DNA of 64,000 nucleotides, taken from Escherichia coli. GTDB lineage: Bacteria > Pseudomonadota > Gammaproteobacteria > Enterobacterales > Enterobacteriaceae. Where the stretch lies: the NCBI RefSeq assembly GCF_044324785.1, contig NZ_CP172127.1. One strand, 5' to 3'. A model generated the notes under the pieces. It saw only the letters and a list, made by a program, of their open reading frames with translations. It did not search any database and was not told the DNA's origin. The position numbers and the translations under genes were made by a program. Positions 2,702-36,304 of the stretch are shown here, one piece after another; position 1 is the first letter of the stretch, and each line of letters begins with the position of its first letter.

Positions 2702-3580
2702 TTAATGAACTTGCGGATCTGCCGGAGACGCGTTGTTGCGGATTTCAGCAATATCCATCGCATTGAACAGATAGTGGTTACCGCAGTAATCGCAATGCAT
2801 GTCAATTTCGCCATCTTCCGCCAGGATACTATCGACTTCTTCATCCGGCAGCGTTTTTAGCGCGTCGGCGCAACGTTCACGCGAACAGGTGCATTTGAAC
2901 TCCACATCCTGCGGATCGTAAACCGTCACCTCTTCTTCGTGATACAAACGCCACAACACTTCGTTTGCCGGTAAGGTCAACAATTCTTCGGTTTTGATGG
3001 TTTCGGTTAGCGTTGCCAGGTGGTCAAAGTCGTCCTGCTGGGCATTTTGCGCAGGCATTACCTGCAACAACATTCCGCCTGCAGCCGGTTTGCCGTCTAC
3101 GTCGCCGGTGCGAATAAACAGGCGCGTCGGCAGCTGTTCAGAACGCATAAAGTAATCTTCCAGGCAGGCCGCCAGGGTATCACCTTCCAGACCCACCACG
3201 CCCTGATAGCGTTCGCCTTCGCTCGGGGTGATGGTGATCACCACGTAACCATTGCCGACCAGCGTTTTCAGGTCGGCATTTTCCGGAATTTCGCCCTGCA
3301 CGCGCGCCACACCGCGCATCTGCTGGTTGTTGTTACCGTTAATAACCGCCAGATTCATCGGACCGTCGCCTTGCAGCTGTACGGTGATATCACCATCAAA
3401 CTTCAGCGTAGCGGTTAACAGGCTGGTCGCAACCAGCAGTTCTGCCAGCACGTTTTTAACGGGCTGCGGATAATCGTGATTCTCAAGGATCTGTTGCAGG
3501 GTTTCCGAAACGGTTACCAGTTCGCCGCGAACGGCAAAGTTTTCAAACAGATAGCGATGTAATTGGTCATGTTGCGGCAT
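2702..3580 (-). CDS. hslO: Hsp33 redox-regulated chaperone
   Basis: ORF track (294 aa; start trimmed to MPQHDQ); C-terminal CxC...CxxC zinc centre (KCTCSRERC...HCDYCG). Confidence 0.93.
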
Positions 3581-28290: not shown

Positions 28291-28326
28291 TGCTGGATAG
28301 CCCCGTTCGGCAATCAAGCTAAATTC

Positions 28327-28395
28327 AGCGCCGGACGGTCCCCGCAACGCGCCAGCATCGCCGGATGCGATGCTGGCGCATCTTATCCGGCCTAC
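28327..28395. repeat. REP/BIME element between convergent yhfS and frlR
   Basis: cgccggatgcgatgctggcgcatcttatccggcctac matches the canonical REP palindrome; partial second unit upstream. Confidence 0.75.
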
Positions 28396-28397
28396 GG

Positions 28398-29129
28398 TTA
28401 ATGTCTTTTATTATCAATCGTTAAGGTGATGCGGTTGGCGCGGCAGAAGAGTTCGGAGACGTGCACCGGTTTGTTATTCTGATCAAAGGCGATTTTGCTG
28501 ATGCGAAACAGCGGTTCGCCCAGTTCGCATTTCAGCCATTTTGCCTGCGGGCGGGTGGCGGCAAAAATATCGATAGTCTTTTTATCGCTGACCACTCGCG
28601 TGTCAAAACGCTCCTGAAATAACTGATAGGTGGAGCTTCCTTCGACGTAAATCTCATCAAAGTCAGGATAACGCGACAGCGGGATCCAGGAACTATCAAT
28701 AAACAGCGGCTCTTTATCGAGATACATCACCCGGCAAAGATGGAACACTTCGCTGTTACCGGGGATGTTCAGCTTTTCGCAAAACGGCGCGGCGCTGACC
28801 CGTTCCTGTTCGATCACTTTCTCTTTCGTCGCCTTGCCTTGTGAGACGCCAAAATCGGTAAAACCACTGACAGTAAGCAGGGCGTTTTCAACTTTCTGGC
28901 TTTGTACAAAGGTGCCTTTGCCCTGCCAGCGGATCAGTACGCCGTCTGCCACTAAGTCGCTGATGGCTTTGCGAATGGTAATGCGGCTGACGTTATATTG
29001 CGTACAAAGCTCGTTTTCGGTAGGGATCTGTTGCCCGGCCTGGTAAACCCCCTGCGCGATATCATCCAGCAACCGCTGGCGGACGGTAGCGTAGAGGAGT
29101 TGATGAGAGTAGCGGTCCGTAGCTGACAT
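28398..29129 (-). CDS. frlR: GntR-family transcriptional regulator of the fructoselysine operon
   Basis: ORF track 265 aa trimmed to MSATDRYSHQLLYATV (243 aa); N-terminal HTH. Confidence 0.88.
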   Translation of the reverse strand: MSATDRYSHQLLYATVRQRLLDDIAQGVYQAGQQIPTENELCTQYNVSRITIRKAISDLVADGVLIRWQGKGTFVQSQKVENALLTVSGFTDFGVSQGKATKEKVIEQERVSAAPFCEKLNIPGNSEVFHLCRVMYLDKEPLFIDSSWIPLSRYPDFDEIYVEGSSTYQLFQERFDTRVVSDKKTIDIFAATRPQAKWLKCELGEPLFRISKIAFDQNNKPVHVSELFCRANRITLTIDNKRH

Positions 29130-29228
29130 AATCGACCCTGAAATAAAGAATGAATTACACGGATTATAGGGTCGTTTTCCGGCAAGTAACAGCATGTTGG
29201 CGTGAAGATGCTCACGCCAACGTTATGC

Positions 29229-30014
29229 CTACCAGGCACCGTGGTACTGAATAGTTTGTGCCGCGCACGCCGTTCCCTGCGCCATCGCCTGCGGTAATGT
29301 CATCCCCGCAGACCAGCCGCAAAGGAATCCGGCAATGAACGAATCTCCGGCACCCATGGTGTCGATAACCGTCACCGGTTCAGGATCCTGACGCCAGAAC
29401 TGCGCGCCATCCCAGGCAATACTGCCGTTTTCACCCAGCGTGACAATCACCACGCCTGCGCCACGGGCAACAATCGCCTTCATCTTCAGACGTAACGCTT
29501 CGTCTTCTTGCGGCGCGGAGGCAAAGGCAAAATCGAGATGCGGCACCAGTGTCTGCCAGAGCGGGCTGTCCCACTTGTCGGAGAAGTCGAAAGCGGTAAG
29601 TTTTCCCGCTGCGTGCAGGTGCGGGAATGCGTCCTCCGCATGTCCCCAGATTGCCGCGTGCACAATGTCATATTGCGCCAGCCAGGCGTAATCCTCTTCG
29701 CTCAGGGCAAAGTCGGCCATCACGCCTTCGGTGTAGTCGCCAAAAACGCGATCGTTGTCGTGCAGTTCCACCTGAGTTTGTGCGGTAACGCCGTGTTTCG
29801 TATGGACATGGCTGATATCGACGTCCATGCGGGCAAGATCCTGCTTCAGCTTTGTGCCGTAGTCATCATCTCCCACCCAGGTAATGCATCCCGGCTTTAT
29901 GCCGTAGCGAGTGCAGTACACCGCCACGTTCACCGCATTACCGCCAGAAAACGCTTTATTCAGTTGCGGGTAGATATCGACGCAGTTATCGCCGATTGTC
30001 GCCAGGTTTTTCAT
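29229..30014 (-). CDS. frlD: fructoselysine 6-kinase (PfkB-family sugar kinase)
   Basis: ORF track 261 aa; PfkB C-terminal motif DTMGAGDSF. Confidence 0.9.
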
Positions 30015-30841
30015 CTCGCATCCTCCGGCAGCAGCGCGCGAAAGCGTTCCAGCGCCTGGCGAGCGTAGAGTCTGGGTTCGTTCATATACATCGTTACCAG
30101 TTCCACTGTGCAGTACCCCTCATAACCCCGGTCGATAATATCGCGCATCAACTCCCGCAGCGGCATTTTGCCTTCGCCGGGAATGTAATGCGTGTCGCTG
30201 GCCCCGTCGCTGTCGACAATATGCAAATGACGCAATTTATCGCCCAGTTTGTCGAAATAACTCATCACCGGTTCCGCCTGGACATACGGCGCACAAATGT
30301 CGACCATGCTGAACAGACGCGGCGAAGGCACCAGCGCCAGCGCATGAAGCACATCATTGGCATTACACACGACGTTCGATTCATACGGCGTTAACGGTTC
30401 GAGGATCAGATCCATGCCGATGTTTTCCGCGTACTCACACAGTTCGCTTAGGTTCTCTGCCAGCCGCCCCCAGATAACGTTAGGCGGCGTGAGATAACCC
30501 GCGTGGGCCGCGGAAATCAGCGTATAACCGGCGTTCATCTCTTTTGCCATATCCATCGCCAGCTTGATCATGTCGAGGCTTTCGCGACGCATATGTTCAT
30601 CGCCCAGCATCATGTTATACGGATAGCCATTAGTTTCTGGCGTATAACCGACAATCGGCATCTGATACGTCTGCGCCAGCGCTTTAATGTGTTTGATGCC
30701 GCCCGCTTTTAAGTCCGGCGCGAACGCGTGCGGGCGACCGCCCCAAATTTCGATGCCGTCGTAACCCAGCTCGCTTGCATCACGAAATGCTTGTTCAATA
30801 GGCAGCCGCTGGTGGCCGCAGGTAAACATACCTGTTTTCAT
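30011..30841 (-). CDS. frlC: fructoselysine 3-epimerase (xylose-isomerase-like TIM barrel)
   Basis: ORF track 324 aa trimmed to [16 protein letters not shown] (276 aa). Confidence 0.88.
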
Positions 30842-30890
30842 CGGGTAACTCCTTGCGTAAATCCGGCCCGTTGCCGGGCCGGGAGAGGGA

Positions 30891-31913
30891 TTAATATTCC
30901 ACCAGACCACCGTAATAGCGGCGTTCATCCGGGTTGTGATCTTTGTAAATAGACAGGTAGTAGCAGAGCCACTCCATCGGCACAAACATCAGGAACGGTG
31001 CCAGCCACGGGTGCAGCCCTTGCGAAATTTCGGCGTAATCAATGACGATCACGTTGTCAGTACGCTGTTTAACAAAGTTAATGGCGCGTTCGGTGGTGTG
31101 GCGACTTTCGTCATTGCCGAGCAGGAACAGGAACGGAACGCCCGGCTCGACAATTTCCAGTGGGCCGTGGCGGAACTCTCCGCTTTCGATCACGCAGCCG
31201 TGCGTCCAGGTAAATTCCATTAGCGTTACAATGCCTTCTTTGTAACCCAGCGGGCGCAGCGGGCCTGCGGCAACCGTGTAAATCATCGGCCACTGGCTGG
31301 CCTGTTCACCAAGCTGGCGGCCTTTTTCTTCCCAGGTGCGTACCAGATGACCGAGCGCATTCGGCAGCTGTTTGAGATCGTTTTTGATCTTGCCGATTTC
31401 CGCGTTCGGCGCGAGGCGGGTGATCATCTCCAGCACCACGCTGTAGCAGAGCAGCAGATGAATTTCCCAAATACAGTCGGCCTGATAATCAATGCTAAAT
31501 TCCGCCGCCGAGGTAATCGGGCTGTCCGCGCGTTTGGTGAACGCCGCAGTGAGCGCGCCGCAGGCCCGGCCCAGCTCCAGCGCTTTGATCACCTCTTCGG
31601 TTTTACCGTAGTCAGAAACGCCAATCACCGCGCAACGATTGTCGAGGCGATACGGGGTGTTATCGCAGAACTCCCAGCCGGAAATGGCGTAGACCTGAAG
31701 ATCGGAAAAGCGATCCGCCAGATGTTTCGCCGTTTGCGCCGCGTTGAGTGGCGATCCGCAGGCAACGAAATAAATACGATTAATGTCGCGCTTCACCATC
31801 TCTTCCACGATGGCATGCACCAGCGGAACGTCATGGCTGAGAACTTTTTCCACTTCCTGAACCATATTTTCGGTGACCAGAAAGTCCACGGTGCTTTTAT
31901 CAATATCCAACAT
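30891..31913 (-). CDS. frlB: fructoselysine-6-phosphate deglycase (SIS-domain protein)
   Basis: ORF track 347 aa trimmed to [11 protein letters not shown] (340 aa). Confidence 0.88.
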
Positions 31914-31933
31914 TTTATTTTCTCCAGATAACA

Positions 31934-33322
<1,389 letters not shown>

Positions 33323-33565
33323 TTAAAAGATAACATGACAATGCATGATGAATATAACAACATATGATGTTATGTAATGTGGAGGAAGATCACAAAATTT
33401 CGCACAGGATCGCGCTGTGGCTAATGGATGTAGTTATCAAATTGAATTTAAAGTGAAAATATTTTTACGGGCGGGGGCAAGAAGGACATAGAAACAAATA
33501 CGCCCTCGGAAAATCCAGAGGGCGTCGGGCAATTAAACCGGTGTTAGCCGATTTCTGTCAGAGAC

Positions 33566-33733
33566 TTACTGTGCAGTAGGACCGCAACCGCCAATGATTT
33601 TAGAAATAGAAATTGCCGGGTGCAGCAGGTAGTCGTAAGAGCAGTTCTTATCACGGTTTTCAATATGACCAGTACATGCAGTTAACGTAGCCAGTACCGC
33701 ACCTACCAGTGCAACTTTAATAAATTTGTTCAT
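33566..33733 (-). CDS. yhfL: small lipoprotein (55 aa)
   Basis: Hand translation: MNKFIKVALVGAVLATLTACTGHIENRDKNCSYDYLLHPAISISKIIGGCGPTAQ*; lipobox LTAC; below the 60-aa size of the ORF track. Confidence 0.8.
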   Translation of the reverse strand: MNKFIKVALVGAVLATLTACTGHIENRDKNCSYDYLLHPAISISKIIGGCGPTAQ

Positions 33734-33979
33734 TTACATTCCCTATGTATTATATATTGATTAATATTCATTGTTTATATGAATATAAGCAGACTGCTCA
33801 TTAAGAACGATACAGGAATATTTAATTGGCGTCAGTGAGTGAATGGCTTAATTTTGTAAGTCGCTGTAACGGTGAATATAACCCATTAGCAGATAATATT
33901 TATTAAGGGGTTATGTTTTATTTGCTGAATATATAAAAAGAGTCATTAAGAAGGCCAGAATTCTCTGGCCCGGGTTACA

Positions 33980-35353
33980 TTAATGGTTGGAGAACCAGTT
34001 CAGTTTATCGCGCAGGCCAACAACCCGACCAATAATAATTAGCGATGGACTGTTCATTTGCTGCGCTAGTTCGCCCAGCTGTGTGAGCGTACCGTCAATC
34101 ACGCGCTGCGTGACTGCTGTTCCGTTTTCGACAATTGCCACCGGCATTTCGCCAGGCATACCGTGTTCAATCAGCTTTTGCTGAATGGTCGCGGCCTGAT
34201 TCAGCCCCATATAGAACACCAGCGTCTGTTTTTCTGCCGCCAGGTTTTCCCAGTCCAGCTCGCCACCGGTTTTTAAGTGTCCGGTAATTAAGCGTACGCT
34301 CTGGGCATAATCGCGATGCGTGAGCGGAATACCCGAATAGGCAGAGCAACCAGAAGCTGCGGTAATACCCGGAACCACCGAGAACGGAATACCCGCGTTG
34401 CACAGTGTTTCCAGCTCTTCGCCACCACGGCCAAAAATAAACGGATCGCCACCTTTCAGCCGCACCACGCGTTTGCCTTTTTGCGCTTCCCGCAGCAGGA
34501 TCTGGTTTATCTCTTCCTGCGGTACGCAGTGGTATCCCGCGCGTTTGCCGACGAAAACGCGATCAGCATCGCGGCGTACCAGATTCATAATATCGTCAGA
34601 AACTAGACGGTCGTAGACCACCACATCTGCCTGCTGAATTTGTTGCAGACCTTTCAGTGTCAGCAGCCCGGCATCGCCCGGACCTGCGCCAACCAGCACC
34701 ACTTCACCGCGATGGTCGAGCGGTTCGTTGATTAACTGTTCGGTCGTTTCAGTAATGGCTTTCTGATCGTTGTTTGCCAGCGACTGCGCCAGACGGTCAT
34801 TAACGAACAGTTTTTCCCAGAAACGGCGACGTTCACCCATTGTTGCGAACTGTTGTTTCACTCGACCGCGTAATTGCCCGGCGTATTTCGCTACCTGGCC
34901 CAGATGCAACGGCAGCAGTGATTCAAGTTTTTCACGCAACAGGCGTGCCAGAACCGGAGAGGTGCCGCCAGAGGAGACCGCGACCATGAGCGGTGAGCGG
35001 TCAATAATCGACGGCATAATAAAGCTGGCGGCTTTCGGCGCATCGACCACGTTACAGAAGATGCGACGAGCTTCAGCGGCTTCACTGACGCGCTGGTTAA
35101 GCGCGTCATCATCCGTCGCAGCAATCGCCAGCCAGCAGGTGTCGAGAAGGCTTTCATCAAATGGCCCTTCGACGAGGGTTAACATGCCTGCATCTGCCCA
35201 TGCGGTGAACTGCGGAATAAACGCTAATGCATTCACCGTTAAGCGAGCGCCTGCGTCTAACAGTAACCTTGCTTTGCGTTCCGCGACATCACCACCGCCG
35301 ACAATCAGACAGTCGCGATCGCGTAATTGGCAAAATATAGGCAAATGATCCAC
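33980..35353 (-). CDS. cysG: siroheme synthase (uroporphyrinogen-III methyltransferase / dehydrogenase / ferrochelatase)
   Basis: ORF track 457 aa; methyltransferase motif [18 protein letters not shown]. Confidence 0.95.
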
Positions 35354-36178: not shown

Positions 36179-36304
36179 TTGATTATCCTTAAAAAAATAA
36201 AAACAAAAAAATAAAACAAAAAGTTTAAAAAATGTCCTGCAATATACCGAAGGTTATTACAGGACCATGCAAAAAGGGGAGGCATTGCGCCTCCTGTTAA
36301 AACA

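Follow-up and report, generated by a model that had tools for sequence, protein, structure and literature searches.

The spacer between yhfL and frlA in Escherichia coli is the characterised promoter and operator region of frlABCD (Graf von Armansperg et al.; bioRxiv 10.1101/2020.01.13.904318; Mol Microbiol 2021), in which transcription starts 75 nt upstream of the ORF of frlA, a CRP site is centred at -41.5 with demonstrated dependence on cAMP and glucose, and a sigma32-dependent start precedes the sigma70 +1 by about 70 nt. The same work reports the sequence of the FrlR operator, with a K_D of 4.9 nM, and, drawing an analogy with NagR, explains its recognition by contacts to the guanines on its flanks (bioRxiv 10.1101/2020.01.13.904318). 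A natural strain without the frl operon was noted in an earlier paper, and a 2026 preprint describes the yhfL/frlA intergenic region, frlR, frlA and frlC as parallel adaptive targets in mouse-gut evolution, where the selection on the spacer, frlR and frlA was for fructoselysine use. On the other side of yhfL, genomic SELEX placed in vitro sites for RpoD holoenzyme and for H-NS in the spacer leading from cysG to yhfL, and TTAACG-19-TATAAT was proposed as the K-12 yhfL promoter (PMC3946193). An RpoS-holoenzyme SELEX peak lies in this spacer as well (PMC5493296), and in a study by ChIP-seq and RNA-seq no gene was more strongly repressed by Nac than yhfL, which had a fold change of 0.008 and an assigned Nac peak (PMC5217608). 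The gene has otherwise received screen-level mentions, a Salmonella yhfL deletion has been reported to be without phenotype in a single assay, and our literature search found no mention of the protein family DUF4223.

We compared with these systems a locus within a stretch of 64,000 nucleotides of E. coli DNA (the window), in which nirB-nirD-nirC-cysG, yhfL and frlA-B-C-D-R lie on the minus strand and yhfS-yhfX run convergently to them. The original prediction had singled out positions 33323-33979, between frlA and cysG, as an AT-rich islet. We consider it very probable that conventional parts of the nirBDC-cysG / yhfL / frlABCDR region, all on the minus strand, together make up this islet. 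According to this explanation, cysG transcription would end at a hairpin, and the AT-rich spacer would then carry the yhfL promoter, a target of sigma70 and sigmaS holoenzymes and of H-NS in vitro and repressed by Nac. The gene itself would encode a 55-aa prolipoprotein, processed to a 36-aa lipopeptide of the outer membrane as predicted from its sequence. A strong intrinsic terminator would close yhfL, the frlABCDR segment would begin straight after its U-tract, and the start of that segment would comprise a sigma32 promoter, a class-II CRP site, a sigma70 promoter and the FrlR roadblock operator. Composition, gene identity, hairpins, the junction and population frequencies were computed, protein binding and regulation are taken from the cited papers, and we infer exactly where the motifs lie, how the lipoprotein is processed, that a disulfide forms and what the operator variant does.

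The GC content of positions 33323-33979 is 37.6%, compared to 52.3% for the whole window, and the segment occupies the deepest 657-bp GC trough in the 64 kb (minimum 0.370, start 33308), with only 0.08% of 657-bp windows as low. The claim of an AT-rich segment of roughly 650 bp is thus borne out; its AT content does not equal the genome average, and the excess matches that of ordinary intergenic DNA. Resolved by part, GC amounts to 31.7% in the 246-bp cysG-yhfL spacer, 42.9% in the 168 bp of yhfL and 39.9% in the yhfL-frlA spacer. The window has 28 spacers of 80 bp or more, delimited on an approximate gene map, and their GC averages 45.4% (sd 8.3%); the cysG-yhfL spacer is the third lowest, behind 30.6% and 31.0%, and the yhfL-frlA spacer is average. 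The 657-bp minimum arises because two spacers of normal composition are parted by only the 168 bp of low-GC yhfL. The AT-richness of the region is typical for intergenic DNA and unexceptional as spacer DNA. The nirD-nirC spacer (36179-36304; 31.0% GC) is comparably AT-rich and carries an indel relative to K-12 from about 36211.

Of the bounds proposed for the segment, the one on the cysG side is correct, cysG occupying 33980-35353 on the minus strand with its stop codon at 33980-33982. The left edge at 33323 does not hold, as it follows the longest frlA open reading frame (31934-33322, minus strand; 462 aa, start 33322), which overshoots the start annotated in RefSeq at 33271 (445 aa). No Shine-Dalgarno sequence accompanies this upstream ATG at 33322, which corresponds to about +24 of the mRNA. 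Counted from the annotated frlA start, the stretch belonging to neither frlA nor cysG is 33272-33979 (708 bp, 38.1% GC). In agreement with the prediction that it contains only yhfL besides promoters and terminator hairpins, the curated MG1655 record lists yhfL alone.

The predicted 55-aa lipoprotein gene is an ATG open reading frame at 33566-33733 on the minus strand, encoding a DUF4223 protein with a lipobox. The protein is identical to RefSeq WP_001031834.1 ("YhfL family protein"; b3369), and its residues 1-54 match positions 1-54 of the 54-position Pfam profile DUF4223 (PF13978) with E=5e-38 and 129.2 bits at a cut-off of 27. The signal peptide MNKFIKVALVGAVLATLTA consists of a basic n-region (MNKFIK), a hydrophobic h-region (VALVGAVLATL) and the lipobox LTAC (LTA-C20), which conforms to the bacterial lipoprotein signature ([LVI][ASTVI][GAS]C) and whose cysteine is invariant; in NCBIfam, the LptM signal-peptide model matches weakly and within residues 1-20 only. 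YhfL would accordingly be cleaved and lipidated at Cys20. Sorting of lipoproteins is guided by the residue at +2, known as the Lol avoidance rule, and because this residue is Thr and not Asp in YhfL, the protein is predicted to reach the outer membrane. The mature part of 36 aa contains the invariant Cys31 and Cys50, which probably form an intramolecular disulfide, and the near-invariant motif YDYLLHPAISISKIIGGCG. Across 21 YhfL sequences from 39 loci, 21 columns are invariant, including C20, C31, C50 and H38-S42, and the conserved core reads C-x10-C-x-Y-x-Y-L-L-H-P-A-I-S-I-S-K-I-I-G-G-C-G. An AlphaFold2 model computed on the 21-sequence alignment reached a mean pLDDT of 64 (44-67 in the mature part), too poor for a fold search, and a profile search of PDB sequences with YhfL returned nothing at E values up to 1. 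For specialists, this predicted lipopeptide of 36 aa may be of use for its striking conservation and its three invariant cysteines.

The 39 yhfL loci, found in a scan of one genome per species, are nearly all from Enterobacterales, with yhfL located after cysG in Citrobacter, Enterobacter, Leclercia, Lelliottia, Cedecea, Buttiauxella, Pseudocitrobacter and Hafnia. In Citrobacter youngae ATCC 29220 yhfL is present twice, once beside cysG and once in surroundings of 47% GC that lack both cysG and yhfS. The third-codon-position GC of yhfL in the window is 37.5%, compared to 56-68% in cysG, nirC and frlA, and in most genera the GC content of the coding sequence lies below that of its locus, although this is an old syntenic gene. 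The low third-position GC is not accounted for by ordinary intergenic DNA.

Terminator hairpins had been expected around yhfL, and two were found. The one after cysG, GGCCAGAG-AAUU-CUGGCC (33952..33971, minus strand; -14.1 kcal/mol, z -2.1), begins 9 nt past the stop codon and has an 8-bp GC-rich stem followed by an interrupted U-tract (UUCUUAAUGACUCUUUUU), so that it shows the stem of a rho-independent terminator and only part of its tail. Other Escherichia keep a hairpin at the same spot by paired changes (GGTCAGA/TCTGACC in the divergent lineage E69), and Citrobacter has a different hairpin there (GCCCTGA/TCAGGGC). This maintenance of a hairpin at one position, either by paired changes or with another sequence, identifies it as the cysG terminator. 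The hairpin after yhfL (33500-33525; -20.5 kcal/mol, z -3.6) is followed by the U-rich tail AUUUGUUUCU (33499-33490) and has the full make-up of a rho-independent terminator (33490..33525, minus strand); in E69, SCPM and E. albertii its sequence has changed in ways that preserve the pairing.

Between the cysG hairpin and yhfL, a variable AT-rich filler (33871..33951, minus strand), in which E. coli lineages differ by numerous substitutions and indels, is followed by approximately 135 bp beside yhfL (33734..33870) that are near-invariant across Escherichia. The distal part diverges between E. coli lineages by about 9-12% plus indels, which is close to our estimate for third codon positions of cysG (about 40 mismatches over 458 codons), and it therefore looks essentially unconstrained. 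Identity of the whole spacer to that of the window ranges from 87.7 to 99.6% among E. coli, compared to 97-98.5% for cysG and nirC; relative to O157:H7 the 246 bp show 23 substitutions and 8 gap positions, where cysG diverges by 2.9% and nirC by 2.4%. Among 5426 complete E. coli genomes, 5384 have the spacer at a coverage of at least 80%, and in 153 of the 5426 it is at least 99% identical to the version in the window. A division of the E. coli spacers into two discrete haplotypes was considered and rejected: the versions of 275-279 bp come from records 94-95% identical to the window and probably belong to other Escherichia clades. Spacers at this position are likewise AT-rich (26-47% GC) in Citrobacter, Enterobacter, Leclercia, Cedecea, Buttiauxella and Hafnia, and no alignment of the spacer was possible between genera.

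The conserved promoter-proximal part of the spacer (33734..33870, minus strand) would hold the yhfL promoter region and 5' UTR. Candidate P1 on the minus strand consists of TTAATG (33804-33799), 19 nt and TATAAA (33779-33774), corresponding to the K-12 promoter TTAACG-19-TATAAT; both hexamers proposed for K-12 are altered in the window, and CFSAN061763, the one of the 153 spacer relatives that was examined, has both changes. A consensus scan returned a second candidate on the same strand, P2, made up of TAAACA (33777-33772), 17 nt and TATAAT (33754-33749), 15 nt before the ATG, and the change from TATAAT to TATAAA at 33774 provides P2 with a better -35 element (TAAACA). The Shine-Dalgarno sequence AGGGAA lies at 33744-33739 on the minus strand. 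As for Nac, the assigned peak would sit within cysG, approximately 70 bp from its 3' end, according to coordinates converted between genome versions. An ATA-N9-TAT match of the Nac type overlaps the yhfL promoter at 33764-33778; one such match, with roughly 0.4 expected by our estimate in a spacer of this AT content, is suggestive and not significant alone. Matches to the high-affinity H-NS motif TCGATAAATT with up to two mismatches are not enriched, the islet containing a single one, inside yhfL, against a mean of 0.74 per 657 bp. The original prediction had noted that pockets of this kind are often regulatory and bound by nucleoid proteins: a regulatory character is supported here by the sigma70 and sigmaS SELEX sites and the frl control region, and for H-NS the published binding is in vitro.

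The sequence common to all E. coli ends exactly at the end of the yhfL U-tract: at 33489..33490 query coverage stops and the junction sequences align. What follows is a presence/absence segment of 5198 bp (28292-33489; far end at 28291/28292) containing frlABCDR, with 54.1% GC compared to 52-53% in its flanks. It is present in 3292-3294 of the 5426 complete E. coli genomes (about 61%), the frl promoter being found in 3294, and 1924 of the 5426 (about 35%) have the intact frl-less junction, in which the yhfS stop codon and 33489/33490 are linked by 30 nt of filler. Both junction forms also occur in E. albertii and in Escherichia records 94-95% identical to the window, and yhfS adjoins yhfL in Citrobacter, Superficieibacter, Buttiauxella and one Enterobacter; the frl-less state therefore looks ancestral, and the segment looks like a single old gain. 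Tested against the properties of integrative islands, it shows presence and absence at a fixed site, and it has no atypical GC content, no tRNA target, no terminal direct or inverted repeats of 7 nt or longer, and no integrase among its annotated genes. Since the junction falls inside the islet, the left quarter of the islet is accessory DNA and the rest core DNA. The position of the junction directly after the yhfL terminator, along with its frequencies over 5426 genomes, may be useful to specialists. Near the far end, between yhfS and frlR, a REP-like GC-rich palindrome (gccggatgcgatgctggcgcatcttatccggcctac) lies at approximately 28340-28397 in a spacer of 63.6% GC.

The first 220 bp of the segment are the published frl control region, and the architecture agrees with the published one within 1 nt. 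By inspection, the motifs CTTTAAA (33453-33447) and CATCCATT (33430-33423), 16 nt apart, likely constitute the sigma32 promoter (33415..33453, minus strand), with a start near 33415. The CRP site TGTGA-TCTTCC-TCCAC (33379..33394, minus strand) is centred at 33386.5, about -41.5 from the sigma70 start as in a class II arrangement, and is conserved in E69. For the frlABCD sigma70 promoter (33345..33378, minus strand) the consensus scan gives ATTACA (33378-33373), 16 nt and TG-TATATT (33356-33351), with +1 near 33345/33346. The frlA 5' UTR then runs over 33272..33344 on the minus strand to the ATG at 33271, with the Shine-Dalgarno sequence AAGG 9 nt upstream, and its predicted fold shows no significant structure (z +0.45). 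A palindrome with 18 of 20 matching positions, ATAACAACATATGATGTTAT, is situated at 33354-33373 between the sigma70 -35 and -10 elements and is conserved in the E69 lineage; it was considered as a second FrlR site and rejected, as its arms read AC...GT instead of GT...AC.

The FrlR operator frlO (33330..33339, minus strand; +7 to +16) reads GTCATGTTAT in the window and GTCATGTTAC in K-12 and in the divergent E69. The difference is a C-to-T change at 33330 in the "AC" of GT-N6-AC, the pattern of GntR/HutC-type operators, so that the window has GT-N6-AT. Since the position and the other nine of ten bases are kept, we regard it as the same site with a mutated half-site. The change removes a guanine from the opposite strand, and under the published recognition model a weaker FrlR repression is therefore plausible. 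In its 32-nt context the T allele occurs in 1 of 5426 genomes, that of the bovine strain E89, compared to 2762 genomes with the C allele exactly and 2935 overall. E89 is K-12-like at all other variable sites across 3.1 kb, and so the change is either recurrent or was transferred on a very short tract. The near-absence of the allele, the K-12-type haplotype of E89 and the parallel targets in gut evolution together led us to consider, tentatively and as the less probable case, that GT-N6-AT is a putative adaptive allele, in which FrlR would bind the half-site more weakly and basal frlABCD expression would be higher. A natural operator variant of this kind could serve to test the GT-N6-AC recognition model of FrlR.

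An AT-rich segment with an H-NS site could also be read as a small xenogeneic islet, in which yhfL and its spacers would be horizontally acquired DNA silenced by H-NS. The composition fits, as the spacer is AT-rich, the third-position GC of yhfL is low and 38% of the spacer lies in A/T runs of at least 6, against 5.7% window-wide; the H-NS SELEX site in the cysG-yhfL spacer, observed in vitro, points the same way. However, the spacer is not patchily distributed among the E. coli genomes (5384 of 5426), yhfL stands beside cysG from Hafnia to Escherichia and the mature peptide is almost invariant, a pattern that fits an old core gene maintained by purifying selection. Furthermore, yhfL must be measurably expressed, because Nac induction lowers it 125-fold, and we give a recent silenced acquisition little credence. 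Even less probable, to the point of being very unlikely, is that a small protein or sRNA gene lies unannotated within the islet, as the original prediction had suggested. AT-rich spacers are able to host such genes, and four open reading frames of 24-31 aa are present in these spacers along with promoter-like hexamers, yet three of the latter were found where 2.7 are expected in shuffled sequence. The consensus scan for promoters and terminators gave no more sites than shuffled sequence, and its criteria missed the real yhfL terminator. None of the four frames is maintained: 33826-33906(+) is interrupted by a stop codon in K-12, E89 and frl-less strains, 33364-33456(+) has lost its start codon and gained a stop in E69, and 33417-33491(+) and 33437-33532(-) are frameshifted in E69, the last one also crossing the island junction. 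None reaches the Pfam threshold, with one weak sub-threshold CMD match (E=0.046), and the sole Rfam 15 match is a chance one, to a trypanosomatid snoRNA model inside cysG (20 bits with a gathering score of 55; E=0.5). Together with a distal spacer that diverges like third positions of cysG and a curated MG1655 annotation that has only yhfL here, this leaves hidden genes without support. Annotated and published elements suffice to explain the GC trough, so that it gives no grounds for claiming a new gene or RNA.

A further possibility, compatible with the composite of conventional parts, is that structural changes favour the AT-rich DNA as a hotspot, which would be both the entry point of frlABCDR and a target for IS1; its interest would then lie in recombination more than in regulation. 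The island junction at 33489/33490 does fall within the islet, and IS1 elements are found around it: IS1A is inserted in the cysG-yhfL spacer of USMARC-51688 (L044, 1212-1909), IS1B lies beside yhfL in the frl-less strain KGu016 (hit H13), and an IS1A-bounded deletion in FCI56 takes out yhfL to frlC' (L003, 3288-3985). The locus itself is mosaic. No complete E. coli genome is at least 99% identical over the 901 bp of 33200-34100, the cysG-yhfL spacer is closest to that of the frl-less strain CFSAN061763 (99.6%) and the frl promoter is K-12-like, which makes the locus in the window a recombinant. However, the IS cases are only three among the matches listed, and the island ends show neither a tRNA nor repeats. 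The junction is moreover identical in divergent Escherichia clades, which argues for one old event, with later loss or homologous recombination, and against repeated insertion. We therefore regard a hotspot as rather unlikely, if less so than a xenogeneic origin, and retain the composite of conventional parts as our explanation of the islet. All its essentials are already annotated or published; the result is of little weight in itself and mainly clears a candidate.

Set against the known systems, the region has the same genes, order and orientation as the yhfL region of E. coli K-12, with an identical YhfL protein (b3369). Identity to K-12 is 98.7% over 901 bp, and the terminators and frl control elements are at matching positions. 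Of the ten substitutions in 33272-33979, three fall in published or predicted sites, namely AC to AT in frlO (33330), and TATAAT to TATAAA (33774) and TTAACG to TTAATG (33800) in yhfL P1. Among the AT-rich promoter spacers bound by H-NS (PMC3946193), the cysG-to-yhfL spacer is itself a member, with RpoD and H-NS sites; unlike in a horizontally acquired island, the gene it serves is an old conserved core gene. The frl region described by Graf von Armansperg et al. can be followed element by element, its sigma70 promoter, CRP site, sigma32 promoter and FrlR roadblock operator all being locatable in the window, with the one difference that the 3' dinucleotide of the operator is AT here and AC in theirs.
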